A stretch of 24,000 nucleotides of DNA, from assembly GCA_031430575.1 (NCBI GenBank), contig JANPBT010000055.1, forward strand, positions 30,820 to 54,819. The letters run 5' to 3'. The stretch's first letter is position 1; each line of letters begins with the position of its first letter. The stretch comes from Betaproteobacteria bacterium (lineage in GTDB: Bacteria > Pseudomonadota > Gammaproteobacteria > Burkholderiales > Casimicrobiaceae). The notes under the pieces are model-generated. The model was not told the DNA's origin and ran no database searches. It was given only the letters and a program-made list of their open reading frames with translations. Position numbers and translations under genes: made by a program. Shown here piece by piece: positions 1,177 through 22,213 of the stretch.

Positions 1177-2055
1177 ATGCAAACCCCCGGACAACGCTTC
1201 CGCCAAGCACTTAAAGAAGAATCGCCCCTGCAAGTGATCGGCGCGATCAACGCCAATCATGCGCTCCTCGCGCAACGCGCGGGCTATCGCGCGATCTATT
1301 TATCGGGCGGCGGTGTCGCTGCCGGCTCGCTTGGTTTGCCCGATTTGGGCATTAACAATTTAGATGATGTGCTCACCGACATTCGCCGCATCACCGATGT
1401 GTGCGACGTGCCGCTCATGGTCGATATCGACACTGGCTTTGGCCCCTCCGCATTCAACATCGCCCGCACGGTGAAATCCCTCATCAAATTTGGCGCGGCG
1501 GCCTGCCACATCGAAGATCAAGTCGGCGCGAAACGCTGCGGCCACCGCCCGGGTAAAGAAATCGTGACTACCGAAGAAATGGTAGACCGCGTAAAAGCCG
1601 CTGCGGACGCGAAAACTGACCCCAATTTTTTCTTAATCGCCCGCACCGACGCGATACAAGTGCATGGCGTAGATGCCGCGATCGAGCGCGCGGTGAAGTG
1701 CGTCGAAGCCGGCGCTGACGGCATCTTCGCTGAAGCCGCCTATGATTTGCCGACGTACGAAAGATTTGTAAAAGCGGTGAACGCCCCCGTGCTCGCCAAC
1801 ATCACCGAGTTCGGCAAAACGCCGTTATTCACCGTTGATGAATTGAAATCGGTCGGCGTGCAAATCGTGCTCTACCCGCTCTCCGCCTTCCGTGCGATGA
1901 ACAAAGCCGCGGAAAATGTCTACACCGCCATCCGCCGCGACGGGCATCAGAAGAATGTGGTGGAGACGATGCAGACGCGCGATGAGCTTTATGACCGGAT
2001 TGGGTATCACGCGTTTGAAGAGAAGTTGGATGCGTTGTTTGCGGGGAAGAAGTAA
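1177..2055 (+). CDS. prpB: 2-methylisocitrate lyase
   Basis: 292 aa with the isocitrate-lyase/PEP-mutase fold signature [18 protein letters not shown] and a typical PrpB N-terminus (FRQAL...[25 protein letters not shown]). It sits with prpC, acnD and prpF. Confidence 0.93.
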
Positions 2056-2058
2056 TTC

Positions 2059-2319
2059 ATGCCGACGTTAAGCGCGTTTTACGGAATATTGATTCGGATG
2101 TACTTCGAGGATCACGCACCACCGCATTTTCACGCGCTTTACGGTGAATTTGAAGCATTGATTGATATTCAAAATTTGGCTGTAATTCGTGGCGCACTTC
2201 CGCGTCGCGCGCTGCAACTCACGCTTGATTGGGCAGAGTTACATCGCGAAGAATTGCTTTCGGATTGGGCGCTTTGCCAGATCGGAAAAACGCCCAACCC
2301 GATTCCACCTCTGCTGTAA
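2059..2319 (+). CDS. DUF4160 family protein
   Basis: 86 aa with the characteristic N-terminus MPTLSAFYGILIRMYFEDHAPPHFHALYGEFEA. It starts 3 nt after the prpB stop. Confidence 0.8.
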   Translation: MPTLSAFYGILIRMYFEDHAPPHFHALYGEFEALIDIQNLAVIRGALPRRALQLTLDWAELHREELLSDWALCQIGKTPNPIPPLL

Positions 2320-2336
2320 CATCAAGGAGAACTGTG

Positions 2337-2597
2337 ATGATTGACTGGCATGTTAAGTGCGTTGAGGTTACAGATGAAACTTCGCTCAGAGTAACGTTCG
2401 CCGATGGCATTTCTGGCATGGTACGCTTTGAGTCATCGCGCTTTCGAGATGCCTTCGCGCCGTTGCGCGAGCCAAAGATATTTTCCGATGTAAAGATTGA
2501 GCACGGCGCATTGACCTGGCTCAATGGCGAGATTGATCTTGCTCCTGATGCAATGTATGACCAATTGAAGGCGCATGGAGAGTGGAGATTGAGTTAG
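2337..2597 (+). CDS. DUF2442 family protein
   Basis: ATG 2337 is preceded by AAGGAG (2324..2329). The product MIDWHVKCVEVTDETSLRVTFADGISGMVRF... has DUF2442-like size and pattern. The longer 2229 start would overlap the DUF4160 gene and lacks an RBS. Confidence 0.75.
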   Translation: MIDWHVKCVEVTDETSLRVTFADGISGMVRFESSRFRDAFAPLREPKIFSDVKIEHGALTWLNGEIDLAPDAMYDQLKAHGEWRLS

Positions 2598-3004
2598 TGC
2601 ATCGAGCCAAACCAATTTGGACGCACATTACCATCCAAGTGTCCAACATCGAACAAAGCATCGCCTTTTATGAACGCTGGTGCGGCATGACTATTGTTCG
2701 GGATCGAAGAATTACGGGCGGCAACACGGTATGGATGGGCTCCTACGCAGATTCGGACAAACAACGGGATTTGCTATTGGTGCTTGACCCGGAACCGGTG
2801 ACGGATCGAATGCGGCATTTCGGATTTCAACTTGAGAACTTAATCGACTTGGACGCTATGGCGGTAGAGGCAGAACAGGCAGGTATCCTCGCTGCGCCGC
2901 CAACGCTTTTAGGGGGAGAGCTCGGGCACTACTTGATGATCCGGGATCCCGATGGGCATGACGTGGAATTTACCGTTGGGCAGCCAATTCGTGGATTGCA
3001 GTAG
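2582..3004 (+). CDS. VOC (glyoxalase/bleomycin-resistance/dioxygenase) family protein
   Basis: 140 aa with HITIQVSNIEQSIAFYERWCGM ... HFGFQL ... YLMIRDPDGHDVEF, typical of the VOC fold. The start is uncertain: GTG 2582 or in-frame GTG 2597, which overlaps the upstream TAG. Confidence 0.7.
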   Translation: MEIELVHRAKPIWTHITIQVSNIEQSIAFYERWCGMTIVRDRRITGGNTVWMGSYADSDKQRDLLLVLDPEPVTDRMRHFGFQLENLIDLDAMAVEAEQAGILAAPPTLLGGELGHYLMIRDPDGHDVEFTVGQPIRGLQ

Positions 3005-3009
3005 CCAGC

Positions 3010-3117
3010 GTAGGGTGCGCACCGTCAGTGAGAAGCATGGTATGTGCAAAGCAACATCGCCGCGGGCGACCGGTGCGCAAAAGAGCGTTGCGCACCCTAC
3101 AGGGCGTACTTTTTTTT
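3010..3117 (+). terminator. Structured intergenic element with a T8 tract; possible terminator or REP-like element
   Basis: Segment 3089..3100 can pair with 3010..3021 (12 bp) or with 3072..3080 (9 bp, GGTGCGCAA/TTGCGCACC). A T8 run at 3110..3117 follows. The element begins 6 nt after the VOC stop. Confidence 0.4.
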
Positions 3118-3144
3118 CAAGAGATAAGTTTCAAAATAGGGCAA

Positions 3145-3160
3145 TTCTGCGCCGCAGGTA
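3145..3160 (+). repeat. Copy of the 16-mer (15/16, TTCTGCGCCGCAGGTA), intergenic, ending 28 nt upstream of the prpC ATG
   Basis: Read directly from the sequence. Confidence 0.9.
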
Positions 3161-3187
3161 TTTAACAAAAAACGTAGCGAAACTCAT

Positions 3188-4351
3188 ATGACTGATACGA
3201 CATCAACCACAACGCCAGGCTTCAAACCCAAAAAATCTGTAGCCCTTTCCGGCACTGCGGCGGGCAACACCGCGTTGTGCACCGTTGGCCGCACGGGCAA
3301 CGATCTCGCCTACCGTGGCTACGATATTTTGGATATCGCCGATGACTGCGAGTTTGAGGAAATCGCGTTTTTGCTCGTTCACGGCAAGCTGCCAAACATT
3401 GCCGAGCTCGCAGGCTACAAAGCAAAGTTGAAATCGTTGCGCGGCGTGCCCGCAGCGGTGAAAGCGGCGCTCGAGCAGTTGCCTGCCTCCGCCCATCCAA
3501 TGGATGTGATGCGCACGGGCGTATCGGTGTTGGGCTGCGTCTCACCTGAAAAAGACGATCGCAATCACGCTGGCGCGCGCGACATTGCCGATAAATTGAT
3601 GGCCTCGCTCGGCTCAATGATGCTTTACTGGTATCACTTTTCGCACAACGGCAAGCGCATTGAAGTTGAAACGGACGATGATTCGATCGGCGGACATTTC
3701 CTACATCTCCTGCATGGCACGAAGCCCCCAGAAGCGTGGGTCAAGGCGATGCACGTTTCGCTCAATCTGTATGCCGAGCATGAGTTCAATGCGTCGACCT
3801 TCGCGTGCCGCGTGGTGGCGGGCACAGGTTCGGACATGCATAGCGCGATTTGCGGCGGTATCGGCGCGCTGCGCGGCCCTAAGCATGGCGGTGCCAATGA
3901 AGTGGCGTTCGAAGTGCAAAAGCGCTACGAAACGCCTGACGAAGCCGAAGCCGACATCAAAGCGCGCGTGGAGCAAAAGCAAGTGGTGATTGGCTTCGGT
4001 CATCCGGTCTATACCATCGCAGACCCGCGCAATAAAGTGATCAAAGACGTCGCGCGTAAGCTCTCAAAAGACAAAGGCGACATGAAGATGTACAACATCG
4101 CAGAGCGGCTCGAAACCGTGATGTGGGACATCAAAAAAATGTTTCCAAATCTAGATTGGTTTAGCGCAGTGAGTTATCACATGATGGGCGTGCCCACCGC
4201 CATGTTTACCCCGCTTTTTGTGATTTCGCGCACGAGCGGCTGGAGCGCGCATGTGATTGAGCAACGCATCGACGGCAAGATCATCCGCCCGAGCGCAAAT
4301 TACATCGGACCGGAAGATCAACAGTTTGTACCGATTGAAAAAAGGACGTAA
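3188..4351 (+). CDS. prpC: 2-methylcitrate synthase
   Basis: 387 aa citrate-synthase family protein ([27 protein letters not shown]) of PrpC-like length, in prp operon context. Confidence 0.93.
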
Positions 4352-4722
4352 TGAACTTTAACCACGCGATGGTGAACGTGAGCGATCTAACGAAGAGCTT
4401 GGCGTTTTATACGCAGCTCTTTGGCCAATCCGCGCGCGTGATTTCAGCGGTGGATCATTACGCACGGCTCGCATTTGCAAGTGGCACTTCTCTTTCCTTG
4501 CATGCAACAGAAGGCAAATCTGCGCCGCAGGCATCGAGCAATGCGTTGTATTTTGACTGCGACGTCGATGCGCAATTCGCACGACTACAGTCGCTAGGCG
4601 TCGTGTTTTCCCAAGCGGCGAACGATCAACCGTGGCACTGGCGGGAAGCGCATTTGAGTGATCCAGATGGTCATCCCCTCGTGCTTTTTCACGATACAGC
4701 GGCTAATCGGAGAGTGCGTTGA
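4351..4722 (+). CDS. VOC/glyoxalase family protein
   Basis: 123 aa (HAMVNVSDLTKSLAFYTQLFG ... LSDPDGHPLVLF). Its ATG overlaps the prpC TAA by 1 nt (TAATG). Confidence 0.75.
   Translation: MNFNHAMVNVSDLTKSLAFYTQLFGQSARVISAVDHYARLAFASGTSLSLHATEGKSAPQASSNALYFDCDVDAQFARLQSLGVVFSQAANDQPWHWREAHLSDPDGHPLVLFHDTAANRRVR
4518..4533 (+). repeat. Copy of the 16-mer (15/16, ATCTGCGCCGCAGGCA), inside the CDS, read as SAPQA
   Basis: Read directly from the sequence. Confidence 0.85.
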
Positions 4723-5201
4723 TCCCGAGCGCTCAGTTACTCGGCGAGCTTACCTCTCGCCGCGCCACACGCGCTGATTTGCCAGCGCTGCTCACGCTCA
4801 TCGCTGACGACGCGCTCGGTAAAAATCGCGATGCTGATCACGACCACCCGATTTATGCGGCAGCGTTTGAGCGCATTGACGCCGATCCTAATCAGTATTT
4901 GATGGTGGTTGCGCGCTTGGATGAAGTCGTCGGCATGGCGCAAATCACGCTCATCCCCGGCTTGTCGCGCAGAGGCGCGACGCGTGCGAATATTGAAGCG
5001 GTGCGGGTCGCAAGTGGATTGCGCGGGCAAGGGGTCGGCACGTGGCTCATGCTCGAAGCGCAGAAGTATGCGCAATCGCAAGGCTGCGCGTTGCTTCAAT
5101 TAACGAGTGATAAGGTGCGCGATCAAGCGCATCGCTTTTACGGGGAGCTCGGTTACGAAGCATCCCATATTGGATTTAAGCGTCGGTTGGAGATCATATG
5201 A
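4719..5201 (+). CDS. GNAT family N-acetyltransferase
   Basis: 160 aa with the acetyl-CoA binding motif RGQGVGTWLMLEAQKYAQSQG and C-terminal RFYGELGY. The TTG start overlaps the upstream TGA (TTGA). Confidence 0.82.
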   Translation: MIPSAQLLGELTSRRATRADLPALLTLIADDALGKNRDADHDHPIYAAAFERIDADPNQYLMVVARLDEVVGMAQITLIPGLSRRGATRANIEAVRVASGLRGQGVGTWLMLEAQKYAQSQGCALLQLTSDKVRDQAHRFYGELGYEASHIGFKRRLEII

Positions 5202-5932
5202 AACAAATGCAAATGTGCGCCGCAGGTATCGCCTTTTTGATCGGAGCCAGCATTGCTCAAGAGGCGAGCGCTCAACTAACCGGCTCTCGGGTCGACGGCT
5301 ACCAGCGCGAAGTTGAACAAAAACTCAAAAAATCGCGTGATGACTATCTCGTAGAAAAGGAAGCGGCACGCGCCAGCAAGGCAGCAGCGAACGCTGGATA
5401 CGGTTTTTCGAATCGGATAGAGGCTGAAGGTGTGCCGCTTTCAAAGCGCGGCTCGCAGTGGAAAATCAGCACAACCCGATATAGCTGCGCTGGCGGGCTC
5501 GCGCTGGTGACAAAGCAACGGCTTTCTTCGGCCGACTTTACCGCAGGCATCGCTGAGCGGCGCGATGCAGGCAGTACCGCGCGCGGCGCCATTTTTACCA
5601 AAAACAAACCCGATCAAATCGAGCTCGATGCGCTCGACGATCTTGATTTAAATTTAAAGAAAATCAAACCGGTTACGCTCACGTTTAAATACAAGAACTA
5701 CCAACTCAATGCCGAAAAAGCGCTTACCGGCTGGCATTTGACCAACCGAACGCAAGGTATTTCCTGGGCTGTGAAGCAAGGTAAGGGCACACTTAAAAAC
5801 TCATATTCTGGTCGCGTACTCGCGCAAGACTGCCGCGGTGGCTCACCGTTTGTTACCGATGCGCCCGAAAGCGAAGATGACGATCTCGCGCCATTCGCGG
5901 CAAGATCGTCTAGTGTTTTTATTACGAAATAG
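5198..5932 (+). CDS. Hypothetical exported protein
   Basis: 244 aa with an N-terminal signal-like segment MKQMQMCAAGIAFLIGASIAQEASAQ. Its ATG overlaps the GNAT stop (ATGA). I recognise no family. Confidence 0.6.
   Translation: MKQMQMCAAGIAFLIGASIAQEASAQLTGSRVDGYQREVEQKLKKSRDDYLVEKEAARASKAAANAGYGFSNRIEAEGVPLSKRGSQWKISTTRYSCAGGLALVTKQRLSSADFTAGIAERRDAGSTARGAIFTKNKPDQIELDALDDLDLNLKKIKPVTLTFKYKNYQLNAEKALTGWHLTNRTQGISWAVKQGKGTLKNSYSGRVLAQDCRGGSPFVTDAPESEDDDLAPFAARSSSVFITK
5213..5228 (+). repeat. Copy of the 16-mer (15/16, ATGTGCGCCGCAGGTA), codons 6-11 of the exported protein, read as CAAGI
   Basis: Read directly from the sequence. Confidence 0.85.
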
Positions 5933-6021
5933 CGACCATAGCGCGTCCGCCAAACAGCGGATGCAGCGTGGCTTCAACGAAAACTTCTACACGTACATTT
6001 AACTTCATCTGATCAACTTCG

Positions 6022-8607
6022 ATGTATAAAAAAAAGCTTCCTGGAACCACGCTTTCATATTTCGATGCCCGTGCCGCGATTGACGCGATAACACCTGGCG
6101 CCTACGCAACGCTGCCCTACACCTCGCGCGTGCTCGCGGAAAATTTAGTACGTCGCGCTGATCCGGCCAAGCTCAACGACTATCTTTCGGAACTCATTTT
6201 GCGCAAGAGTGACTTGGATTTTCCGTGGTTTCCAGCGCGCGTGGTTTGCCACGATATTCTCGGCCAAACTGCATTGGTCGATCTCGCAGGCCTACGCGAT
6301 GCCATCGCCGATGAGGGCGGCGACCCGGCGGAGGTTAATCCCGTTGTGCCAGTGCAATTGATTGTCGATCATTCGCTCGCGGTGGAGTGCGGCGGCTTCG
6401 ATCCCAATGCGTTTGAAAAAAATCGCGCGATTGAAGATCGTCGCAACGAAGATCGCTTTCATTTCATCGATTGGACGAAACGGGCATTTAAAAATGTAGA
6501 AGTGATCCCGCCGGGTAATGGCATCATGCATCAAATCAATTTGGAGCGCATGTCGCCCGTGATTACGGTGCAAGATGGCGTTGCATTCCCCGACACTTGT
6601 GTAGGCACCGATAGTCATACCCCACACATTGATGCGCTTGGCGTCATTGCGATTGGCGTCGGGGGATTGGAAGCAGAAAACGTGATGCTCGGTCGCGCAT
6701 CGTGGATGCGCTTGCCAGAGATCGTCGGTGTTGAACTTTCAGGTAAGCCGCAGGAAGGCATCACCGCGACAGACGTCGTGCTCGCGTTAACAGAATTTTT
6801 ACGGCAACAAAAAGTCGTCGGTGCCTATCTGGAATTTCGCGGCGTAGGCGCTTCCGCGCTCACGCTGGGTGATCGGGCGACAATCTCCAACATGGCGCCA
6901 GAGTATGGCGCAACGGCAGCGATGTTTTTCATTGATCAACATACGATTGATTATTTGCGGCTCACTGGCCGCGAAGACGCGCAGATTAAATTAGTTGAAT
7001 CCTATGCGAAACACACGGGGCTGTGGGCCGATGCGCTTACGACTGCCCAATATCCCCGCACGATTTCATTCGATCTTTCCACGGTCGTGCGCAATATGGC
7101 CGGACCATCAAACCCTCACGCTCGGGTTGCGACGACTGATCTTGCTTCCAAAGGCATCGCAAAACCATGGTCGCAATCTGGTGATTTGATGCCCGATGGC
7201 GCGGTCATCATCGCAGCCATTACGAGCTGCACCAACACGAGCAACCCGCGTAATGTGATCGCAGCGGGCTTGCTCGCGCGCAATGCCAATCGTCTGGGGC
7301 TCACGCGCAAGCCGTGGGTGAAATCTTCACTGGCGCCAGGCTCAAAAACGGTTGATCTCTATTTACAAGAAGCCGGGCTCAAAACCGAGCTTGAAAAATT
7401 GGGGTTCGGTATCGTAGCTTTTGCGTGTACGACGTGCAACGGCATGTCGGGCGCACTCGATCCCATCATTCAAAAAGAAATTGTTGATCGCGATCTTTAC
7501 GCAACTGCAGTGCTTTCGGGTAATCGTAATTTCGATGGCCGCATTCATCCGTATGCCAAGCAAGCCTTTTTAGCCTCGCCACCGTTGGTCGTAGCCTATG
7601 CGATTGCAGGAACGGTGCGCTTTGATATTGAGCGTGATTCTTTCGGTGCTGATGCCAATGGCAATCCGATTTTGCTGAAAGACTTGTGGCCAAGCGATGC
7701 CGAGATTGATGCAGCAGTAAAGGCTAGCGTAAAGCCAGAGCAATTCCGTAAGGTCTATGAGCCGATGTTCGCCATTGGCGTGGCCAGCACCGAGCACGTT
7801 AAGCCGCTCTACGATTGGCGCACGCAGAGCACCTACATTCGCCGCCCGCCCTATTGGGAAGGTGCGCTGGCAGGTGAGCGCACCCTGCGTGGCATGCGTG
7901 CGCTGGCTGTGCTGGGCGACAATATCACCACCGATCATCTTTCGCCTTCAAACGCGATCATGCTCGACAGTGCCGCAGGTGAATATTTAGCCAAAATGGG
8001 TCTGCCCGAGGAAGACTTTAATTCCTATGCGACCCATCGCGGCGATCATCTCACTGCGCAGCGCGCGACATTTGCCAACCCCACGCTCATGAATGAAATG
8101 GCAGTCGTTGATGGCAAAGTAAAAAAGGGCTCGCTCACTCGCGTTGAGCCCGAGGGCAAAGTCACCCGCATGTGGGACGCGATCCAAACCTACATGGAGC
8201 GCAAGCAGCCGCTCATCATTATTGGCGGCGCGGATTACGGGCAAGGCTCATCGCGTGATTGGGCGGCCAAGGGCGTGCGGCTGGCAGGTGTTGAAGTGAT
8301 CGTCGCCGAGAGTTTTGAGCGCATCCATCGCACCAATTTAGTAGGGATGGGCGTGTTGCCACTGGAATTTAAAACGGGCACCAATCGACTCACGCTTGAG
8401 CTTGATGGCAGCGAAACTTACGACGTCATCGGCGAGCGCACGCCCCGCGCCACGCTGACCGTAGTGATTCATCGCAAAAACGGCGAGCAAATCGAAGTGT
8501 CCGCGACGTGCCGACTCGATACCGCAGAAGAAGTTTCGATCTACGAAGCGGGTGGGGTATTGCAGCGCTTTGCAAAAGACTTTTTGGAAAGCAAAAAATC
8601 AGCATGA
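6022..8607 (+). CDS. acnD: Fe/S-dependent 2-methylisocitrate dehydratase (aconitase family, AcnD)
   Basis: 861 aa with an AcnD-type N-terminus (LPGTTLSYFDARAAIDAITPGAYATLPYTSRVLAENLVRR) and aconitase cluster-ligand regions ([19 protein letters not shown]). It is immediately followed by prpF. Confidence 0.92.
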   Translation: MYKKKLPGTTLSYFDARAAIDAITPGAYATLPYTSRVLAENLVRRADPAKLNDYLSELILRKSDLDFPWFPARVVCHDILGQTALVDLAGLRDAIADEGGDPAEVNPVVPVQLIVDHSLAVECGGFDPNAFEKNRAIEDRRNEDRFHFIDWTKRAFKNVEVIPPGNGIMHQINLERMSPVITVQDGVAFPDTCVGTDSHTPHIDALGVIAIGVGGLEAENVMLGRASWMRLPEIVGVELSGKPQEGITATDVVLALTEFLRQQKVVGAYLEFRGVGASALTLGDRATISNMAPEYGATAAMFFIDQHTIDYLRLTGREDAQIKLVESYAKHTGLWADALTTAQYPRTISFDLSTVVRNMAGPSNPHARVATTDLASKGIAKPWSQSGDLMPDGAVIIAAITSCTNTSNPRNVIAAGLLARNANRLGLTRKPWVKSSLAPGSKTVDLYLQEAGLKTELEKLGFGIVAFACTTCNGMSGALDPIIQKEIVDRDLYATAVLSGNRNFDGRIHPYAKQAFLASPPLVVAYAIAGTVRFDIERDSFGADANGNPILLKDLWPSDAEIDAAVKASVKPEQFRKVYEPMFAIGVASTEHVKPLYDWRTQSTYIRRPPYWEGALAGERTLRGMRALAVLGDNITTDHLSPSNAIMLDSAAGEYLAKMGLPEEDFNSYATHRGDHLTAQRATFANPTLMNEMAVVDGKVKKGSLTRVEPEGKVTRMWDAIQTYMERKQPLIIIGGADYGQGSSRDWAAKGVRLAGVEVIVAESFERIHRTNLVGMGVLPLEFKTGTNRLTLELDGSETYDVIGERTPRATLTVVIHRKNGEQIEVSATCRLDTAEEVSIYEAGGVLQRFAKDFLESKKSA

Positions 8608-9812
8608 ACGAAGCGAAATCTGCGCCGCAGGTATTTGTGGCTCAAGTCAAAATCTGCGCCACATACATGCGGGGCGGCACGAGCAAGGGCGTTTTTTTCA
8701 AGCTCACCGATTTGCCTGCTAACGCGCAAACGCCAGGCACCGCGCGCGACGCGCTGCTGCTGCGCGTCATCGGCTCACCAGACCCTTATGGCAAGCAAAT
8801 CGATGGCATGGGCGCGGCCACGTCGAGCACATCTAAAACAGTGATTCTCTCAAAAAGTAGCAAGCCAGATCATGATGTCGACTATCTTTTCGGGCAAGTT
8901 TCGATTGAAAAGCCCTTCGTGGATTGGAGCGGCAATTGCGGCAACCTGTCGTCTGCAGTCGGACCATTTGCCATCAGCAATGGCTTGATTGATGCTGCGC
9001 GCGTTCCTCATGATGGCATGTGCACGGTGCGGATCTGGCAGGCGAATATTCAAAAGACGATCGTGGCTCATGTGTCGATGCGCGCGGGTGCGGTGCAAGA
9101 AACGGGTGGCTTTGAGCTTGATGGCGTCACCTTCCCGGCTGCTGAAATCGAGTTGGAATTTTTAGACCCTGCCGATGAGGGCGAAGACGGTGCGAGCGGA
9201 TCAATGTTCCCGACGGGTAACGTGATCGATACGCTCAAGGTGCCCGGCGTCGGTGAATTTCAAGCGACAATGATTAACGCCGGAATTCCCACAATTTTCT
9301 TAAACGCTACCGATCTCGGCTATACCGGAATCGAGCTGCAAGATGCCATCAATGGCGATGGCACTGCGCTCAAAAAATTTGAGGCAATTCGTACCTACGG
9401 CGCAATCCGCATGGGTTTAATTAAATCCCCCGAAGAGGCAGCGGCACGACAACACACGCCGAAAATCGCCTTCGTTGCGCCCCCGAGATCGTACGTGGCA
9501 TCAAGCGGGAAAACTGTTAACGCATCCGAAATCGATCTTTGCGTGCGCGCACTTTCAATGGGCAAATTGCACCACGCGATGATGGGCACGGCCGCCGTTG
9601 CGATTGGCACCGCCGCTGCGATCCCCGGCACGTTAGTGAACTTAGCTGCAGGCGGAGGCGGCAAGCCTGCCGTGCGCTTCGGGCACCCTTCCGGCACATT
9701 GCGCGTAGGCGCAGAAGCCTCGCAGAGCAATGGGCAGTGGGTGGTGAAAAAAGCGGTGATGAGCCGCAGCGCGCGGGTCTTAATGGAAGGCGTTGTGCGC
9801 GTACCGGGTTGA
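8604..9812 (+). CDS. prpF: 2-methylaconitate cis-trans isomerase PrpF
   Basis: ATG 8604 overlaps the acnD TGA (ATGA). The 402-aa product contains ATYMRGGTSKGVFF and CGNLSSAVGPFA, both typical of PrpF. The longer ORF from 8508 lies inside acnD. Confidence 0.9.
   Translation: MNEAKSAPQVFVAQVKICATYMRGGTSKGVFFKLTDLPANAQTPGTARDALLLRVIGSPDPYGKQIDGMGAATSSTSKTVILSKSSKPDHDVDYLFGQVSIEKPFVDWSGNCGNLSSAVGPFAISNGLIDAARVPHDGMCTVRIWQANIQKTIVAHVSMRAGAVQETGGFELDGVTFPAAEIELEFLDPADEGEDGASGSMFPTGNVIDTLKVPGVGEFQATMINAGIPTIFLNATDLGYTGIELQDAINGDGTALKKFEAIRTYGAIRMGLIKSPEEAAARQHTPKIAFVAPPRSYVASSGKTVNASEIDLCVRALSMGKLHHAMMGTAAVAIGTAAAIPGTLVNLAAGGGGKPAVRFGHPSGTLRVGAEASQSNGQWVVKKAVMSRSARVLMEGVVRVPG
8618..8633 (+). repeat. 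Copy of the 16-mer (16/16), codons 5-10 of prpF, read as SAPQV
   Basis: Read directly from the sequence. Confidence 0.9.
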
Positions 9813-10815: not shown

Positions 10816-11070
10816 ATGGAAACCACCCTCGCCGAACGCGGCCAAATCGTGATCCCCAAAGCTTTGCGCGACCAGTTGGGCTTAGTGCCAGGATGCAAGC
10901 TCGATATCGAGAACGTTAACGGCCGGCTGACCATTTCAAAAAAGCCCGATGATGCACTGGCGCAATTGCGCGGGCGATTCACCCTAACGCCCAATACCTG
11001 CGGCGCAGATTTGGTCGATGCCATGCGCGGGCGCGATGTTGGCGACGTAAAAGTGGGCACTCCGGCATGA
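10816..11070 (+). CDS. vapB: AbrB/MazE/SpoVT-family antitoxin (VapB-like)
   Basis: 84 aa. RGQIVIPKALRDQLGLVPGCKLDIE is a SpoVT/AbrB swapped-hairpin motif. The gene overlaps the downstream PIN gene by ATGA. Confidence 0.85.
   Translation: METTLAERGQIVIPKALRDQLGLVPGCKLDIENVNGRLTISKKPDDALAQLRGRFTLTPNTCGADLVDAMRGRDVGDVKVGTPA
10995..11010 (-). repeat. Copy of the 16-mer in reverse orientation (16/16), inside vapB, read as TCGAD
   Basis: Read directly from the sequence. Confidence 0.9.
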
Positions 11071-11507
11071 CACTCGCCGTTGATTCCGCCGTGCTCATTG
11101 ATTTGCTTGCGGCTGGTAGCGCAGCCCGAATGAACCCGGCGGAAGACGCGATTCGCGTCGCGCTCACCCAAGGCGTTGTCGTGATGAGCGATGTGGTCGT
11201 CGCCGAGGTTTGCGCAGGATTCGGCGATGGCGCTGAAGTGATGGATGCGCTGCGCGATGCGGGCATTACGCTTTCGCCAATGAACGAGCAAGCCTGCGTG
11301 CGCGCGGGCGAGATGCATCGCAAATATCTCTCGCGCGCTAAGAAAGCATCGCAAAGCGAATTCAAAGCGCGCAACGTCTCTGATTTTCTCATTGGCGCAC
11401 ACGCGCATTTGCAGTGCAGCGGGTTAATCACCTACGATCATGCGTTTTACCGTGACTACTTCAAGGGATTGCGTTTAATCACTCCGAAAGCTTTGGAAAA
11501 TGCTTAA
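11067..11507 (+). CDS. vapC: PIN-domain ribonuclease toxin (VapC-like)
   Basis: 146 aa with N-terminal LAVDSAVLIDLL (first acidic PIN residue) and a later DFLIGAHA motif. It is coupled to the AbrB-type antitoxin. Confidence 0.85.
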   Translation: MTLAVDSAVLIDLLAAGSAARMNPAEDAIRVALTQGVVVMSDVVVAEVCAGFGDGAEVMDALRDAGITLSPMNEQACVRAGEMHRKYLSRAKKASQSEFKARNVSDFLIGAHAHLQCSGLITYDHAFYRDYFKGLRLITPKALENA

Positions 11508-11955
11508 AAATCGCCTTTTCTGCGCCGCAGGTATTTCACTATTTATAAGCCTTAGCGCCAGCGCAGACGCGCTCCCGCAAGCTGGCGCGTGGGCTTTTGA
11601 AGTCGTCACCGACTTATCAAAAATTCCTAAGGAAATGCGCGAAAATTTCCCAACGATTAATTTTGAGCGCTGCATCAAAGCAGATGAGATCGCTTCACCA
11701 AAAGCATTTGGCTTACAAACGAGCGCGCAAATGGGCGCGCGCTGCAGCCACCCGACATTTTCGTTGGCCGATGGCAATCTTGCCTATACCTTTGAGTGCG
11801 ATAGCAGCACAACGCTCACCGGCGAAGCGCGCGGAAATTACGCTGCGCGACGCGTCAATATTCAACTCATTTCTCGGCCCGTGCCCGTCGTGCGCGGAAT
11901 TAACACCGTTCATCAAAAAATCACGGCGAAATTCGTCGGTCAGTGCAAAAATTAG
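11500..11955 (+). CDS. Hypothetical exported protein, possibly DUF3617-like
   Basis: 151 aa with signal-like MLKNRLFCAAGISLFISLSASADA. The conserved-Cys spacing and size resemble DUF3617, but the family call is weak. It overlaps the vapC end by 8 nt. Confidence 0.55.
   Translation: MLKNRLFCAAGISLFISLSASADALPQAGAWAFEVVTDLSKIPKEMRENFPTINFERCIKADEIASPKAFGLQTSAQMGARCSHPTFSLADGNLAYTFECDSSTTLTGEARGNYAARRVNIQLISRPVPVVRGINTVHQKITAKFVGQCKN
11518..11533 (+). repeat. Copy of the 16-mer (15/16), codons 7-12 of the exported protein, read as CAAGI
   Basis: Read directly from the sequence. Confidence 0.9.
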
Positions 11956-11979: not shown

Positions 11980-14900
11980 ATGTCTCACAATGCCTTTAAC
12001 ACCGCCAAAGAATTCCCGCTCGGCGCTGGGAAAACCGGTAAGCTCTACTCGCTACCCGAGCTCGCAAAAACTTTTCCCACCGTTAGTAAATTACCCGTGT
12101 CGATTCGCATCGTTTTGGAATCGGTATTGCGTAATGTAGACGGAAAAAAAGTAACCGAAGCGCACGTCAAAGAGCTGGCAAATTGGGGCGCGACGGATAA
12201 GCGCACCAATGAGATTCCCTTTATCGTTTCGCGCGTCGTTTTGCAAGATTTCACCGGCATTCCCCTGCTTGCTGATTTGGCGGCAATGCGCAACGTCGCC
12301 GTGGCGCAGGGCAAAAACCCGAAGACGATTGAGCCGCTCGTGCCTGTCGATCTGGTGGTGGATCATTCGGTAATGATCGATCATTTCGGGTCTAAAGACG
12401 CGCTTGATCTCAACATGAAATTGGAATTTCAGCGCAACGAAGAGCGCTATCAATTTATGAAATGGGGCATGCAGGCTTTCGATACCTTCAAAGTCGTCCC
12501 GCCTGGTGTCGGCATCGTTCACCAAGTCAATCTCGAGTATTTAGCGCCGGGCGTTCACACCAAAAATGGCGTGACCTTTCCCGATACGGTCGTCGGCACC
12601 GACTCGCACACCACGATGATTAACGGTATTGGCGTGGTCGGCTGGGGCGTCGGCGGCATCGAGGCAGAAGCGGGCATGCTCGGCCAGCCGGTTTACTTCC
12701 TAACGCCAGATGTAGTGGGCGTTAACCTCAAAGGGAAATTGCGCGAAGGCGTTACCGCGACCGATTTAGTATTGACCGTAACCGAAATGCTGCGCAAAGC
12801 AAAAGTGGTCGGTAAATTCGTTGAGTTTTTTGGCGACGGCACCGAGACGCTCACCTTGCCAGATCGCGCGACCATTGCCAATATGGCGCCAGAATACGGC
12901 GCGACAATGGGCTTCTTCCCGATTGACGACGCCACCATTGATTATTTGAAATCCACTGGCCGCAGCGAAGAGACGATTTCTGCATTTCAAAACTACTTCA
13001 AAGCGCAGGGCTTGTATGGCGTGCCAAAAGCGGGCGAGATCCATTACTCGCAAACCGTCGAGCTCGAGCTTTCCACGATCACCGCTTCGCTCGCAGGCCC
13101 CAAGCGCCCGCAAGATCGTATTGAGTTGCCATTTTTGGGAGCGAAATTTACCTCGCTTTACAGCCAGCCCGTCGCCGATGGTGGCTTTGGACTTCCCGCA
13201 GAAAATTTACGCAAACGCTTCCCAATGGCAAGCGGCGCTGAAATCGGTAATGGCGATATATTGATTGCCGCGATTACCTCTTGCACCAACACTTCCAACC
13301 CCGGCGTCTTGCTCGCGGCGGGCTTGCTGGCGAAGAAAGCGGTTGAAAAAGGCTTGACCGTCAAGAAGCATATTAAGACATCGCTCGCGCCGGGATCGCG
13401 CGTTGTTACTGAATATTTAACCAACGCCGGCTTGCTGCCTTACTTGGAGCAATTGGGCTTCGCGGTCGCGGCCTATGGCTGCACAACCTGCATTGGCAAC
13501 GCTGGCGATCTCACCGCTGAAGCAAATGATGCGATCAACGCAAATGATTTGATCTGCGCGGCAGTGCTCTCTGGCAATCGCAATTTTGAAGCGCGAATTC
13601 ACCCTAATTTGAAAGCGAACTTTCTCGCTTCTCCACCGCTGGTTGTTGCTTACGCAATCGCGGGAACGGTTATTCGCAATATCGAAACCGAGCCTATTGG
13701 TCTTGATAAATCTGGCCAGCCCGTATTTTTGCGCGATCTTTGGCCGACCAGCCAAGAAATCGCCGCAGTGATGGGCTTTGCTAAAGATCCAGCCACCTTC
13801 CGTAAGCTCTACGCCAATTTGGGCGCAGATAATCCCCTCTGGCAAAACATCAAAGGCGCGACTGGCGACGTTTACGATTGGCCAAAAAGCACCTACATCG
13901 CTGAGCCACCATTCTTCGATCACTTCTCGATGACGCCTTCGGCCTCGGCGACTGCGATCATGGGCGCAAAGGCGCTCGGCGTATTTGGCGACTCGATCAC
14001 CACCGATCATATTTCACCTGCTGGCTCATTCAAAGACGCAACACCGGCTGGGAAATTTCTGCTGGCGCAAGGCGTGCAAAAAGCAGACTTCAATAGCTAC
14101 GGCTCGCGTCGTGGTAATCATGAAGTGATGATGCGCGGCACTTTTGCTAACGTGCGCGTTAAAAATTTGATGTTGCCCTTAAAAGCAGACGGCGCGCGCG
14201 AAGAAGGCGGCTTCACATTGATGCAGCCGTCTGGCGAAAAAATGCCGATTTACGATGCCGCGATGAAATACATCGCCGCAAAAACGCCAACCGTGGTCTT
14301 TGGCGGCGAAGAATATGGCAGCGGCTCCTCGCGCGATTGGGCTGCAAAGGGCACGCAATTGCTCGGCGTAAAAGCGGTCATCGTGCGCAGCTTTGAGCGC
14401 ATTCACCGCTCTAACTTGGTGGGCATGGGCGTGTTGCCATTGCAATTTAAAGGCAACGATAGCGTTGAAAGCCTTGGCATCAAAGGCGACGAAACTTTTG
14501 ACATCGCAGGCTTGGAAGGCATGAAGCCGCAGCAAGATTTAACGCTAACGATTCACCGCGCCGATGGCACGAAAAAAGATGTCGTCGTCACCTCGCGCAT
14601 CGATACGCCAATCGAAATCGACTACTTCAAGCATGGCGGCATCCTGCCGTATGTGCTGCGTGAGCAATTAAGCAGCGCCGCGCCTGCGGTTGCTGTTGCG
14701 CCCGCTGCTGCGCCAGCGGCCATCGCCGCTGTGGCAGCGGCTGCGGCGACCGTGGCAGCGATTGCAAAACCAGCGGCAACGCCTGCCGCCGCCTTCGTTA
14801 AAAAAGACCCTTCACCCACCGTCGATCTCGCAGCGCATGGCGAGCGGGCGGTCGCGGCGGCCGGCGTTGCCACTGCAGCGATTGGTAGCCGCGCCGTTGG

Positions 14901-15789
14901 GTCTACTTCAGCGGGCACGCCCGATCTCAAGCGCGGCGGCGTTCCGTGGTGGGTCTGGCTCATTGGCCTTGCATTGATTGGCTGGCTGCTGAAAAGCTGC
15001 ATGACTGAGAAAGCGGTTGTCGTTGAAAAGAAGCCAGAAACCGCAATCGTGACCCCGGTCGCAGAGCCTGCAAAGCCATCGATTAGCTTCGGTAAATGGC
15101 TCGCAAGCTTGGTGGGGCCCAAAGTTGCGCTCACTGGCAACACTAAAGACCAAGCCGCAAAAGATGCACTGCTCGGCGCGGCAAAAGGCGCTTTCGGCGA
15201 AGGCAACGTGATCGACAAATTAAACGTCGATGCCAGCGCAGGCATCTGGAATTGGGAAGGCAAATGGCCAGACCTTTTCGCTTGGATGCGCGGCCCGCTC
15301 TTTCAAGCGCGCGGCGGCAATCTCGATTTCAGCGGCGATACCTTGCGCATCACCGGCAAAGTCGATACCGACGCAATCAAAGCCGATATTGAAGCTAAGC
15401 TGCGCGCCATCGTTGGCGATAAAGTCAAAATCGATAATGCGCTCGTCGTTGAAGCTGCAAAGCGCGTCGCCATCGAGGCCAACTTTGATACCGGCAGCGC
15501 CAAGATCAAGCCGCAATATTTCGCCAAGCTCAATACTTTTGCCGCGCAAGTGGCAAAAGAGGGCTTGAAAGGCGAAATCGGCGGCCACACCGATAGCGTC
15601 GGCCAAGCCGCTTCTAACCAAGCCTTGAGCGATGCCCGCGCTAACGCAGTGCGCGATTATCTGGTCAGCAAAGGCGTTAGCAAAGAAGCGCTTGCAGCAG
15701 CCGGCTACGGCGATACCAAGCCCATCGCCGACAACGTGACCCCCGACGGCAAAGCTAAAAATCGCCGGATTGAATTTACGCAGAATTAA
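11980..15789 (+). CDS. acnA: Aconitate hydratase A fused in frame to an Ala/Pro-rich linker, a single TM helix and a C-terminal OmpA-like peptidoglycan-binding domain
   Basis: 1269-aa uninterrupted ORF with RBS AAGGA upstream. About the first 895 aa are full-length AcnA, ending ...[16 protein letters not shown]. The Ala/Pro linker follows (about 14670..14930), then the TM segment [17 protein letters not shown] (about 14940..14995). The C-terminus is OmpA_C-like ([27 protein letters not shown]...[11 protein letters not shown]...NRRIEF). Confidence 0.85.
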
Positions 15790-16036: not shown

Positions 16037-19000
16037 ATGCGAATAATCGGTTTGGATTTGGGGATTGCTTCCGTAGGCTCGGCAGTCGTTGATTTAGATG
16101 AAGTTGCTGGCATCGGGCAGATCGTTTTCGCCGGCGCGCGGGTATTCCCCGCAGCCGAAGATGCGAAGACCGGTGATTCGCTTGCTTTGCCAAGACGCAT
16201 GGCTCGCGGCATGCGCAGGCGCATTGATCGCCGCCGCTTCCGGCTTGATCGGCTCTGGGAATTGCTGACCGAGGCGGGGCTTTTCGATGCACAGGGAGGG
16301 CCGCAAGGCTTTCAGGCGCTGCTGCAAGTAAGAAGGGATGATTTCTGCGCCGCAGGTATCTCGCCTGAAGACGCCGCTGAAAAAACCGATCCTTACCGCT
16401 TGCGGGTTGCTGGGCTTGATCGCAAGCTTGCAGATTGGGAGTGGGTGCGCGCACTGATGCATATCGCCGCGCGGCGCGGCTTTCGCTCAAACTCCAAAGC
16501 CGCAGAAAGTGATGCGAAATCAGATACCGGCAAGATGAATACCGAGATTCGCAAAACCGAGAAATTGTTCGCCACTTTCGAATCCAGAACAGTCGGCGAA
16601 TACGTGCTTAAAAGCACTCAGTTTGCCGAGCATAAGCGCAACAAAGCCGGTAGCTACGCACTCACCCTCAAGCGCGATTGGCTGCGTGAAGAAATTGCAA
16701 AGCTTTTCCTAGCGCAGCGCCAATTTGGCAATTCGCACGCGAGCGAAGATCTAGAAGCAAGATTCCTTCACCGCTTTTATGAGCAAAAACACTATGACCA
16801 AGGCAACATTGATGAAATGATCGGCGAGTGCCAATTTGAGCCACGGGAGCAGCGGGCGGCGAAAGCGACATGGACGTTTCAGCTCACAATGCTTTTGCAA
16901 AAAATTAACCATTTACGTTGGTCTGGTTCCGGTGAAGCGCTGGTTTCCCTCGATGAAGCGCAGCGCAAAGCCGTGCTCGAATTGGCCATCAAGCGCCCAA
17001 AAGTGACTTACGCCCAAATCCGAAATGTCATTGAAATGCCAGATCGAGGGCGATTTAACGGCATCAGTTATCGCGAAAAACGCGGGAAAGATGGTGCGGT
17101 AAAAGAGGCTGATCCGGTCAAGGCAAGCGAAGACGCGACGTTCGTTGAAATGAAAGCCTTTCACTCGCTGCGCAAGCAAATCATTGATACCTGCGGTGAA
17201 ATTTCGTGGGAATCATTGCGCGCGCATCCTGAAAAGTTGGACGTACTTGGCAGCGCGCTGTCAAAATTCAAGGCCGATGATCGGCGCACCGAAATGATGG
17301 AGGCGGCTGGGATCGAGCCCGCAGTTATCAAGGCGGCTCTAGCCCTTTCTTTCGATGGCTTTGGCTATTTAAGCTTGCTTGCCTTGCGAAAGCTGCTGCC
17401 GCATTTGGAGGCCGGTATGCGCTACGACGAAGCGGCGACTGGTGTCTACAAAGATCATCGCGGCGTTTCCACTGTCGTTAAAACCAAGCTCCTTCCCCGC
17501 ATCCCGACCGAGGAGGTGCGCAACCCCGTAGTGCTGCGAGCGTTGACGCAAACGCGCAAGGTACTCAATGCGCTCATCCGTGAATTTGGTTCGCCAAATC
17601 GCATTCACATCGAGCTAGGGCGCGAAGTGGGCAAGAGCCGCGAAGAGCGCAATGAAGTCAAAGACGGTCAGGAAGTCTATCGCTTAGAAAAGGAAAAGGC
17701 AGCAAATCAATTTCGGGAAACATTTCCTGGATATGGTGAACCAAAAGGCGAAGACATCCTGCGCTTCCGGCTCTGGCGCGAGCAAGATAAGAGGTGCATT
17801 TACTCGGACGAATACATCAATCCCGAAAACCTGCTCGCCCAGCGCTACGTTGAAATCGATCATATCCTCCCGCTATCGCGCTCGCAGGATGACGGCATGC
17901 ACAACAAAGTGCTTTGCCTAACGGCCCAGAATCAGCGCAAGCGCAATTTCACGCCCTATGAATGGATGGGCGGCGCGGACGACTCGGATCAATGGCGGAA
18001 ATTTAAATCGCGGGTCGATTCATTGCGCGGACTTCGTAAACCAAAGCGCGACCGGCTACTGCGGGCAGATTTCACCGATGCCACCGCCGAAGGTTTTAAA
18101 GAGCGCAATTTGGTTGATACCCGCTACATCACCAAATTTTTTAAAAACTTCGTTGAAACCCATTTGGAGATTGCAGTCATCGAAGGCGATCGCCAGCCTT
18201 ACGTGCAAACCGGCTCCGGAAAGCTCACCAGCTTTTTGCGGGCACAATGGGGATTGCTCAAAGTGCGCGATGCAAGTGATCGGCATCATGCGCTCGATGC
18301 AATCGTAATCGCTTGCGCCACCAAATCGATGGAACATCGGCTGACCCGCTACCACCAAGCCATGGAAATTTACACCGATAAGCCGCACGAAGCCGCCGAA
18401 TTGCTCGATGTAAATACCGGCGAAATCACCAGCAGTCACTACCGAGATTTGCGCAAACAATTTCCAAAACCGTGGCCAGGTTTCCGCGATGATGCGATTG
18501 CCGCGCTGGAGACGGTTTTCGTTTCAAGGCCGCCGCGCCGCAAATGGAGCGGGCCGCTGCATAAAGAAACGATTTACGGCATCGGCAAAGATGCGGGTAC
18601 GATTTCCCAGCGCGTTCGCATTGAAAACGTAAAGAAATCAACGCTTGAAAAGGCGATTGATCCCGTGCGTAATAAGCTGCTTTACGATGCGATCCGTGCG
18701 CGCTTGGAATTGCACAACGACGACATCAAAAAGGCTTGGATCACCCCGCTGGAATACGACAATGGCGGCGCAGTGCGGCAGGTTCGTGCGATTACCATTG
18801 AAGACAAAATGGGCGATGGTGTGCAAGTACGCGGCGGTATTGCAGCCAACGGGGAGATCGTGCGAGTGGATGTGTATAAGGATGCGAAAGGGAAAAACTA
18901 TTTAGTGCCGATTTATATTTCTGATTTTGGGAAACCTATGCCGATGCGGGCGATTTATCAGGGTAAACCAATTTCGGAATGGCCAGTAATGGATCAAAGC

Positions 19001-19261
19001 TATTCCTTCGCGTTTTCGCTCTACAAAGACGACGTTATAGACATCGATGAGAAGGGACTTGTGTATTTTCAAAGCGTCCACAGCAGAACAAGCAATTTAA
19101 ATGTCACGAGTTCAGACAGGAGCATGAAGTGGGACGGCGTTGGGCCTAAAACTCTTAAGAAATTCAACAAAATGTCTGTCGATATCCTCGGTCGAATCTC
19201 CTACGTAAAAAAGGAACGCCATCTTGCCTTGGCAAAACGTCCTCATCAGTCAGCCGACTAA
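16037..19261 (+). CDS. cas9: Type II-C CRISPR-associated endonuclease Cas9
   Basis: 1074 aa. RuvC-I IGLDLGIASVG (D7), Arg-rich bridge helix RRMARGMRRRIDRRRFR, HNH block EIDHILPLSRSQDDGMHNKVLC...NQRKRNFTPYEW and RuvC-III HHALDAIVIA are all present. It is followed by cas1 and cas2 only, with no csn2 or cas4. Confidence 0.97.
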   Translation: MRIIGLDLGIASVGSAVVDLDEVAGIGQIVFAGARVFPAAEDAKTGDSLALPRRMARGMRRRIDRRRFRLDRLWELLTEAGLFDAQGGPQGFQALLQVRRDDFCAAGISPEDAAEKTDPYRLRVAGLDRKLADWEWVRALMHIAARRGFRSNSKAAESDAKSDTGKMNTEIRKTEKLFATFESRTVGEYVLKSTQFAEHKRNKAGSYALTLKRDWLREEIAKLFLAQRQFGNSHASEDLEARFLHRFYEQKHYDQGNIDEMIGECQFEPREQRAAKATWTFQLTMLLQKINHLRWSGSGEALVSLDEAQRKAVLELAIKRPKVTYAQIRNVIEMPDRGRFNGISYREKRGKDGAVKEADPVKASEDATFVEMKAFHSLRKQIIDTCGEISWESLRAHPEKLDVLGSALSKFKADDRRTEMMEAAGIEPAVIKAALALSFDGFGYLSLLALRKLLPHLEAGMRYDEAATGVYKDHRGVSTVVKTKLLPRIPTEEVRNPVVLRALTQTRKVLNALIREFGSPNRIHIELGREVGKSREERNEVKDGQEVYRLEKEKAANQFRETFPGYGEPKGEDILRFRLWREQDKRCIYSDEYINPENLLAQRYVEIDHILPLSRSQDDGMHNKVLCLTAQNQRKRNFTPYEWMGGADDSDQWRKFKSRVDSLRGLRKPKRDRLLRADFTDATAEGFKERNLVDTRYITKFFKNFVETHLEIAVIEGDRQPYVQTGSGKLTSFLRAQWGLLKVRDASDRHHALDAIVIACATKSMEHRLTRYHQAMEIYTDKPHEAAELLDVNTGEITSSHYRDLRKQFPKPWPGFRDDAIAALETVFVSRPPRRKWSGPLHKETIYGIGKDAGTISQRVRIENVKKSTLEKAIDPVRNKLLYDAIRARLELHNDDIKKAWITPLEYDNGGAVRQVRAITIEDKMGDGVQVRGGIAANGEIVRVDVYKDAKGKNYLVPIYISDFGKPMPMRAIYQGKPISEWPVMDQSYSFAFSLYKDDVIDIDEKGLVYFQSVHSRTSNLNVTSSDRSMKWDGVGPKTLKKFNKMSVDILGRISYVKKERHLALAKRPHQSAD
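16343..16358 (+). repeat. Copy of the 16-mer (15/16) inside cas9, read as CAAGI
   Basis: Read directly from the sequence. Confidence 0.9.
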
Positions 19262-20144: not shown

Positions 20145-20183
20145 ATTCAAGCCCAACATCCGCGCCTGCAAGGAACGACCGCG

Positions 20184-20516: not shown

Positions 20517-20542
20517 GAATTTGATAGTGGCTATCCGCACAG

Positions 20543-20575: not shown

Positions 20576-20588
20576 TTACGCGGGATCA

Positions 20589-22143: not shown

Positions 22144-22213
22144 CGACGCGAGTGCGCCCCCTCTCGGGGGCACCCGCGCATCGAGTGGCTGCGCCACAGG
22201 TCACTAAAAAATC

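Follow-up and report, generated by a model that had tools for sequence, protein, structure and literature searches.

A conserved fusion of aconitase A to a predicted membrane and cell-wall anchor in uncultured betaproteobacteria

Does a gene for an enzyme of central metabolism genuinely continue into a membrane helix and a peptidoglycan-binding domain, and what would such a protein do? The question is raised by a single open reading frame (ORF) at 11980..15789 on the + strand of a 24,000 nt stretch of DNA, here called the window, from a Betaproteobacteria bacterium (GenBank assembly GCA_031430575.1, contig JANPBT010000055.1, positions 30,820 to 54,819). The ORF encodes 1269 amino acids (aa) without an internal stop. 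A first-pass annotation of the same DNA had described it as aconitase A (AcnA) followed by a linker, a transmembrane (TM) helix, BON-like segments and an OmpA-like domain, and all of these parts are found where it had placed them. AcnA ends at 14670, as had been claimed, with no stop codon, and the same frame continues as SSAAPAVAV... The parts of the ORF, and the evidence for each, are as follows; dN/dS is the ratio of nonsynonymous to synonymous substitution rates, and pLDDT the predicted local distance difference test score of the AlphaFold model.

11980..14670, + strand: AcnA moiety, aa 1-897 (full-length Pfam and NCBIfam matches; intact motifs; dN/dS 0.03-0.06)
14671..14922, + strand: cytoplasmic Ala/Pro-rich low-complexity linker, aa 898-981 (sequence, composition)
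14836..14901, + strand: juxtamembrane motif within the linker, aa 953-974 (alignments of the fused clade)
14941..14994, + strand: predicted single TM helix, about aa 988-1005 (hydropathy, Hessa-type sums, AlphaFold helix)
15001..15087, + strand: periplasmic Pro/Lys/Glu-rich spacer, about aa 1008-1036, predicted disordered (pLDDT <50; variable in relatives)
15088..15450, + strand: BON-like region, about aa 1037-1157, two beta-alpha-beta units (profile match to 2l26, model, Foldseek)
15469..15789, + strand: OmpA-like (OmpA_C) peptidoglycan-binding domain, about aa 1164-1269, with the stop codon (Pfam OmpA, PDB matches, Foldseek)

The fusion is genuine, and it has been conserved within a group of uncultured betaproteobacteria. 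An independent Logan assembly from another sequencing run (L167, run SRR20217180) starts 13 codons ahead of the junction and agrees with the window at 1158/1158 bases from there to the stop codon, junction and entire tail included; outside this stretch it has two single nucleotide polymorphisms in cas1 and a collapsed CRISPR array. A full-length search returned the window's own protein (P0121, NCBI, 57-kb contig) together with seven 90 %-identity clusters (P0122-P0128), which are 80-88 % identical to it at 100 % coverage, 1266-1293 aa long, and all contain both Aconitase and OmpA. A more distant AcnA fusion, P0225, is 1188 aa long; its tail has a Thr/Ala-rich periplasmic spacer and no BON-like region, and is closer to the tail of P0031, a fusion of another enzyme considered below, than to that of the main clade. 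The fused clusters hold further JGI and NCBI members, on contigs of up to 276 kb. Fused loci with intact ORFs are found in JGI samples 3300079840 (L082), 3300079872 (L171) and 3300081713 (L086) and in NCBI assemblies GCA_031376405.1 (L083), GCA_965187085.1 (L169) and GCA_965186245.1 (L170), and the fused relatives are drawn from at least six other samples or assemblies. Whether relatives carry an orthologous fusion or a stop codon after AcnA had been named beforehand as the decisive check; eight other fused proteins in independent assemblies are what was found.

The sequence of the tail is also maintained. Synonymous divergence (dS) is about 1.0-1.5 even between the closest fused pairs, with synonymous sites near saturation, and dN/dS from the TM helix to the stop codon, in the AcnA frame, is 0.04-0.21, against 0.03-0.06 for AcnA. 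The codons at the junction vary by lineage, reading CAATTAAGC here and CAACTGGGT and CAGTTAGGT in fused relatives. The out-of-frame TAA that had been noticed in CAATTAAGC does exist, but is incidental, because the relatives reading CAACTGGGT and CAGTTAGGT at this place are fused too.

An artefact confined to this contig, in which acnA became joined to a downstream OmpA-family gene unrelated to it through a lost stop, an indel or chimeric assembly, would fit the TAA at the junction, the existence of standalone TM-BON-OmpA proteins of similar size, and a look-up by gene position that did not return the exact protein. However, L167 reproduces the junction exactly, the other eight fused proteins come from other samples and differ in their junction codons, purifying selection acts on the tail, read in the AcnA frame, at dS values of 1 or more, no OmpA gene follows acnA in unfused orthologues, and the 12-25 % protein divergence of the fused contigs excludes a single mis-assembled template. 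The probability left to an artefact is negligible. The lost stop or indel at 14660..14680 that the first-pass annotation had kept in view is contradicted by the identical independent assembly, the eight other fused proteins and the purifying selection on the tail, while its reading of AcnA-linker-TM-BON-OmpA as a genuine fusion gains support from the fused orthologues, the selection on the tail and the reproduced junction.

The first 897 residues form a complete and, as predicted from its motifs, enzymatically competent aconitate hydratase A. Pfam Aconitase matches at aa 57-562 (536 bits) and Aconitase_C at aa 692-824 (130 bits). Three NCBIfam models match end to end over aa 1-897: NF009520 with 1415.7 bits (cut-off 905), NF006757 with 1346.7 bits (cut-off 686) and TIGR01341 with 1289.3 bits (cut-off 945). 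The enzyme is classed as AcnA and not AcnD because the AcnD model, at 818 bits, stays under its cut-off of 1420. The ligands of the [4Fe-4S] cluster are intact (C435 in SCTN, C501/C504 in GCTTCIGN), a motif check found the substrate-binding motifs including DHISPAG retained, and every catalytic motif checked is present; the assignment of these motifs to cluster and substrate binding is what we take to be established aconitase knowledge. Purifying selection on AcnA (dN/dS as listed above) is consistent with retained function. Hidden Markov model searches, proposed in the first-pass annotation as a check, place Aconitase, Aconitase_C and OmpA above their Pfam cut-offs and the BON models below. 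The N-terminus of AcnA shows neither a signal peptide nor a twin-arginine (Tat) motif, and export of AcnA was rejected on this ground.

The linker measures 84 aa (898-981), near the 90 aa or so claimed for an Ala/Pro-rich linker, and is 43 % Ala. It contains no stop and no Met, in agreement with the claim that no ATG lies ahead of the TM segment. Among fused relatives the stretch from the end of AcnA to the PWW motif of the helix spans 83-109 aa. Indels in the linker are numerous among these relatives and all preserve the frame; the other two frames contain stops. Conservation is poor, with dN/dS of 0.14-0.28 from an uncertain alignment. The sole conserved part across the fused clade is aa 953-974, where all members of the main fused clade have a 22-aa motif, HGE(K/R)A(V/I)AAAG(V/M)ATAAIGSRA(T/V)G, just before the TM helix. 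This motif may be a functional cytoplasmic juxtamembrane element.

The TM helix claimed for the protein is borne out: on a Hessa-type scale the segment ranks first among TM candidates, and AlphaFold models aa 990-1007 as a helix. It is flanked by KRGG before and SC after, and about 260 further residues follow the segment. Its G-x-P-W-W-x-W motif is common to P0031, P0225 and a family of YidB-type relatives; W990 and W991 are invariant across the AcnA fusions, P0031 and the YidB-type protein P0016, and the PWW core is unchanged in 9/9 AcnA fusions. We infer an N-in/C-out topology, the coherent reading, because AcnA has no export signal and requires cytoplasmic Fe-S assembly, an OmpA-like domain is meaningful only in the periplasm, and just one segment is convincing as a TM helix. 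Kyte-Doolittle hydropathy is higher over the Ala-rich first half of the linker (14677-14790, aa 900-937), at 2.03, than over the TM helix, at 1.65. A second TM segment there is disfavoured, the stretch being Pro-containing, unconserved and variable in length. Simple TM predictors could miscount helices in these proteins, given that the hydropathy of the linker exceeds that of the helix. The LLKSC that follows the helix was considered as an internal lipobox cut by LspA and rejected: positions -3/-2 do not fit a canonical lipobox, such a signal would have to lie inside the protein, and the residues at this point in P0225 are KSF.

Beyond the helix, the AlphaFold model of aa 982-1269 (mean pLDDT 73) has a disordered spacer, two beta-alpha-beta units and an OmpA_C-like domain. 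Pfam OmpA matches aa 1169-1262 with 77.2 bits (gathering score 27.2). Pfam BON_like (21.2 bits against a cut-off of 24.1, aa 1046-1084) and BON (13.7 against 27) both stay below threshold, the sub-threshold matches being sited at aa 1046-1084 and 1122-1158; homologues of the tail do bear BON/BON_like (PF04972 / PF21923) in precomputed annotations. Among solved structures, the tail profile best matches 2l26, the Mycobacterium tuberculosis protein Rv0899 (E = 4e-43), in a match spanning BON and OmpA-like domains, and Foldseek with the tail model likewise ranks 2l26 first. The profile also matches the C-domains of OprF, OmpA, YiaD and Pal in the PDB, and the OmpA part of the model superposes on the OprF and OmpA C-domains with a TM-score of 0.77-0.78 and a root mean square deviation of 1.8 A (Foldseek). 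The core of the domain is intact (GGHTDSVG...LSDARANAV, that is, GHTD...LSxxRA); its Asp and Arg presumably contact diaminopimelate, as in characterised OmpA-like domains (Acinetobacter baumannii OmpA-peptide complex, 3td5).

Two labels given to the tail at first sight need adjusting. The two BON-like segments are reflected in the 2l26 profile match and in the two beta-alpha-beta units of the model, yet they are probably one Rv0899-type B domain and not two canonical BON domains. The OmpA_C part of the label OmpA_C/MotB-like stands on the Pfam score, whereas a MotB- or Pal-type anchor does not: NCBIfam models score far under their cut-offs against the tail, with MotD at 69.5-72 (cut-off 283), Pal at 61 (125), the TssL OmpA domain at 77-80 (139.8) and YiaD at 105-107 (175). 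Because of these low scores for the MotB, Pal, YiaD and TssL models, 'Rv0899/ArfA-like' is a better label for the tail. The order of the tail, a single membrane anchor, a BON-type domain and an OmpA-like domain, is that of the Rv0899/ArfA type; the anchor is internal, so the whole protein is not a plain member of that group.

With the linker removed from the query, the tail is homologous to a large family of standalone TM-BON-OmpA proteins of about 275-320 aa from Xanthomonadales/Lysobacterales and other Pseudomonadota. An exhaustive profile search with the tail gave 3772 representatives at E <1e-30, mostly multi-repeat BON/OmpA proteins, and the long profile matches that were checked had only extra BON repeats or YidB/DUF937 domains and no further enzyme fusion. 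The AcnA fusions are unlisted in the 50 %-identity representatives, probably having been merged into AcnA clusters. Word-indexed searches with the tail only (whole tail, or TM helix to end) missed fused relatives with about 70 % tail identity, in the case of the whole tail probably because the Ala/Pro linker flooded the word index. Only the full-length query recovered the AcnA fusions, so negatives from tail-only searches are unreliable for this protein. A tail scan of genome contigs, covering species-representative genomes, gave distant OmpA domains only.

The distribution of the fusion was followed in a midpoint-rooted neighbour-joining tree, without support values, of 45 AcnA cores (the nine fused and the 36 closest unfused). 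All nine fused AcnAs group together, eight of them in a tight clade (87-97 % core identity) with P0225 as a deep sister at 74-76 %, a pattern compatible with a single origin. Identity to the nearest unfused AcnAs is 77-79 %, and those of them that are named belong to metagenome-assembled genomes of Betaproteobacteria, Burkholderiales or Usitatibacteraceae. Unfused AcnAs among the 120 best matches are about 893-948 aa long, and none has an OmpA domain. Two unfused loci (L084, L085) hold acnA in the same slot, in the order AcnD, PrpF, (DUF3617), MazE/PIN pair, AcnA; the genes downstream of acnA there are unrelated and include no OmpA gene, and an origin of the tail by read-through into a downstream OmpA gene was rejected on this evidence. 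The downstream neighbour differs in all four fused loci in which it is visible (Cas9 in the window; UvrA, acyl-CoA dehydrogenase, or LacI plus an ABC transporter in the others); for L170, L171 and L086 the contig stops too close to the gene to show it. The tail stays joined to acnA in every fused locus, and the pattern across these sequences fits a vertically inherited fusion.

The neighbourhood of the gene bears on its possible substrate. The acnA fusion (11980-15789) closes a methylcitrate-cycle (prp) cluster (1177..9812), and the window contains the following other features around it.

1177-2055, + strand: PrpB (Pfam)
3188-4351, + strand: PrpC (Pfam)
4719-5201, + strand: GNAT acetyltransferase (Pfam)
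5198-5932, + strand: unknown ORF (no Pfam match)
6022-8607, + strand: AcnD (Pfam)
about 8625-9812, + strand: PrpF (Pfam)
10816-11507: VapBC-like pair (Pfam)
11500..11955, + strand: DUF3617 gene, 151 aa, with a signal-peptide-like N-terminus (Pfam), 24 nt upstream of the acnA fusion
16037-19261: Cas9, 1074 aa
19224-20144: Cas1
about 20184-20516: Cas2
20589-22144: CRISPR array, about 24 repeats, period 66

The same prp arrangement is found in fused loci L082 and L083 and in unfused L084 and L085, with PrpD in place of AcnD/PrpF in L082. AcnD and PrpF together yield 2-methyl-cis-aconitate, a substrate of both AcnA and AcnB (PMC5690661). Since AcnD and PrpF make that substrate and acnA closes the cluster, the fused AcnA would be the logical 2-methyl-cis-aconitate hydratase.

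Several neighbours are themselves conserved. The GNAT gene and an adjacent gene for a 231-257 aa protein without a Pfam match recur between prpC and acnD/prpD (L082:4293-5473, L083:2415-3664). The antitoxin/PIN pair (VapBC- or MazE/PIN-like) between prpF and acnA is also found in the unfused loci (L084:5230-5885, L085:4652-5317) and is unusually stable in place for a toxin-antitoxin pair. Immediately before acnA, the window and L082 (6934-7974), L083 (7504-7980), L086 (951-1906), L169 (58-519) and L171 (2874-3350) each have one or two genes for DUF3617 proteins, whose N-termini resemble signal peptides; in fused L170 (3833-4309) and unfused L084 (4664-5077) the DUF3617 gene is further upstream with other genes between, and in unfused L085 none is annotated. 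This aconitase seems to be associated with a periplasmic DUF3617 protein whether or not the tail is present. The fusion gene is immediately followed, at 16037-22144, by a type II-C-like CRISPR-Cas locus, in place of which fused relatives have other genes. The interval between cas2 and a GT2 gene, which holds the array, is about 400 nt in L167 compared with about 1,950 nt in the window, and the array is taken to be collapsed in L167 because of this shorter interval.

The tail design is not confined to aconitase. P0031 (650 aa, JGI; L001:977-2929) consists of an entire succinyl-CoA synthetase beta subunit (SucC) to which a similarly designed tail is attached, in the order SucC, Ala/Pro linker, AKKSGLPWWLWVAVAALAAFLLQRGC, second Ala/Pro stretch and OmpA domain. 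Its TM helix reads G-L-P-W-W-L-W and is followed by Cys. The gene is in a normal sucCD operon, with sucD (L001:2989-3882) beginning 60 nt downstream, and the nearest unfused SucC is 90 % identical to P0031. A second SucC fusion was not found in 80 related loci: 79/79 complete SucC ORFs are about 380-390 aa, and L087 is cut at the contig end. Apparent SucC extensions in related loci proved to be alignment joins and were set aside. From the AcnA and SucC cases together it is tempting, if rather unlikely to be right, to see in the linker, the G-x-PWW-x-W helix, the BON-like part where present and the OmpA domain a portable module that bolts soluble enzymes of central metabolism to the envelope. 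A portable module would imply that enzymes of the tricarboxylic acid (TCA) and methylcitrate cycles are assembled beside the membrane and physically attached to the cell wall. The YidB/DUF937 anchor family could plausibly have donated the module. Its YidB-type members (P0016, P0253-P0256, P0384, P0415, P0455, P0493) are about 470 aa long, some up to 750 aa.

The reading of the fused protein that we favour, and consider somewhat better than an even bet, is an active aconitase tethered to the inner membrane and anchored to the cell wall as one polypeptide. A flexible leash of about 85-110 aa would connect a cytoplasmic [4Fe-4S] aconitase A to a helix that crosses the inner membrane once, and on the far side of this helix a periplasmic Rv0899/ArfA-type module (BON-like and OmpA-like) would bind peptidoglycan non-covalently. 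This would keep the aconitase on the cytoplasmic side of the inner membrane, in a fixed position with respect to the cell wall; there it would most likely hydrate 2-methyl-cis-aconitate to 2-methylisocitrate and probably act on citrate/isocitrate too. Tethering could place the hydration step near a membrane-bound partner, for instance succinate dehydrogenase or the respiratory chain, or restrict diffusion of the enzyme; partitioning and protection are other candidate purposes. Several points weigh against this reading. The fusion protein is known here from its sequence alone, and its uncleaved state is presumed; cleavage within the long linker is possible. The case for the topology consists of domain logic, hydropathy on crude scales and a helix modelled by AlphaFold. 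The charge bias around the helix is weak (net +1 to +2 before, 0 after), and in P0125 the Ala-rich linker scores better than the real helix by a crude Hessa-type sum. Dedication of the fused AcnA to the methylcitrate cycle is a guess, a benefit from tethering a soluble enzyme is a proposal, and the sole parallel case, the SucC fusion, is a hint from a single contig, unreplicated.

The ORF could be genuine and its two halves nevertheless act separately, through cleavage of the linker or an internal start, so that the fusion would serve only to co-express a soluble AcnA and an ArfA-like envelope protein. The linker is long, of low complexity and poorly conserved, as a spacer open to proteases would be, the window's linker contains in-frame GTG codons, and the tail alone resembles complete standalone proteins. 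Yet no Met or start codon in the linker is conserved across the fused relatives and on the + strand the junction shows nothing that resembles a promoter or a terminator; the idea that the tail has its own internal start was rejected for lack of a conserved Met and of a promoter-like signal. If only co-expression mattered, a stop and restart would be expected to reappear, but 0/9 lineages have one, and the conserved juxtamembrane motif suggests a functional cytoplasmic stretch beside the helix. Separate action of the halves appears quite unlikely.

Alternatively, the AcnA part could serve mainly as a sensor of Fe-S/oxidative stress or of iron, or as an RNA-binding apo-protein, with the tether coupling it to the envelope module or localizing mRNAs. 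The aconitases AcnA and AcnB of Escherichia coli are known to switch to an RNA-binding apo-form, and the idea of RNA binding and localization by the fused AcnA, speculation as it is, starts from there. Rv0899-type modules are in addition tied to stress adaptation, namely acid adaptation and ammonia secretion (PMC6151718). However, conservation of the AcnA part is as strong as in ordinary enzymatic AcnAs, with all the catalytic motifs checked retained, its place in the prp cluster, common to unfused orthologues, points to a metabolic role, and the data show no signalling across the single helix. A sensory or regulatory main role is very unlikely on this balance, and a tethered, catalytically active aconitase remains the favoured reading.

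The soluble enzymes of the TCA cycle are commonly assumed to diffuse freely, with any metabolon in bacteria depending on weak, transient contacts. A tethered aconitase, if confirmed, would be an Fe-S enzyme of about 100 kDa covalently fixed to the inner membrane and, through its anchor, to peptidoglycan, and kept so through substantial divergence. It would be a natural experiment on whether the cellular position of a central-metabolism enzyme matters. The anchor module of about 370 aa might be usable to tether cytoplasmic proteins to the Gram-negative envelope, and recurrence of the SucC fusion would suggest deliberate spatial organization of the TCA cycle at the membrane.

Each of the domain families in the fusion is well known, and we found no description of their combination, which would be a new architecture. 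Full-text literature searches (aconitase or aconitate hydratase with OmpA, fusion or membrane anchor) found no such fusion, in line with the earlier remark that no described aconitase of this architecture was known to its author. Source annotations name the fused proteins only 'aconitate hydratase', and because automated annotation says no more, the architecture is invisible in current databases. Canonical AcnA is soluble. The fusion resembles it in the full-length model match, the catalytic residues and the slot by AcnD-PrpF, and differs by its 372-aa membrane and cell-wall anchor.

For the tail, the best solved relative is Rv0899 (ArfA/OmpATb; 2l26, 2lbt, 2lca), which is built from an N-terminal segment that anchors it in the membrane, a BON domain and a C domain of OmpA-like type (PMC6151718) and shares with the tail this anchor-BON-OmpA-like order. 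In Rv0899 the anchor is N-terminal, after a short segment, whereas here it is internal, after an 897-aa enzyme and a linker; identity to the tail is about 29 %, and the host here is a Gram-negative betaproteobacterium. The standalone TM-BON-OmpA and YidB-type proteins are homologous to the tail over the TM, BON-like and OmpA parts at 39-42 % identity. The YidB/DUF937-linker-TM-BON-OmpA proteins (about 470 aa) additionally share the Ala/Pro linker, the G-F-P-W-W-W start of the helix and the Cys after it. In both groups, however, the cytoplasmic part is either some 15 aa long or a small domain with no assigned function, and no enzyme is present among the top matches.

MotB and TssL are N-in single-pass inner-membrane proteins, and MotB, TssL/TagL and Pal have, like the fusion, a C-terminal OmpA-like peptidoglycan-binding domain. 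These families lack the BON-like region of the fusion, which in turn has no lipoprotein signal peptide and no motA or type VI secretion genes nearby. The PsaB protein of Gloeobacter violaceus (7f4v chain aB, 872 aa) also matches the tail profile, through an OmpA-like domain at residues 753-862. This extension has been hypothesized to anchor photosystem I to peptidoglycan and is unseen in the solved structure (PMC11565984). PsaB is already an integral membrane protein, unlike the soluble AcnA that would be tethered here, and it is the nearest precedent for an OmpA-like domain on a bioenergetic protein.

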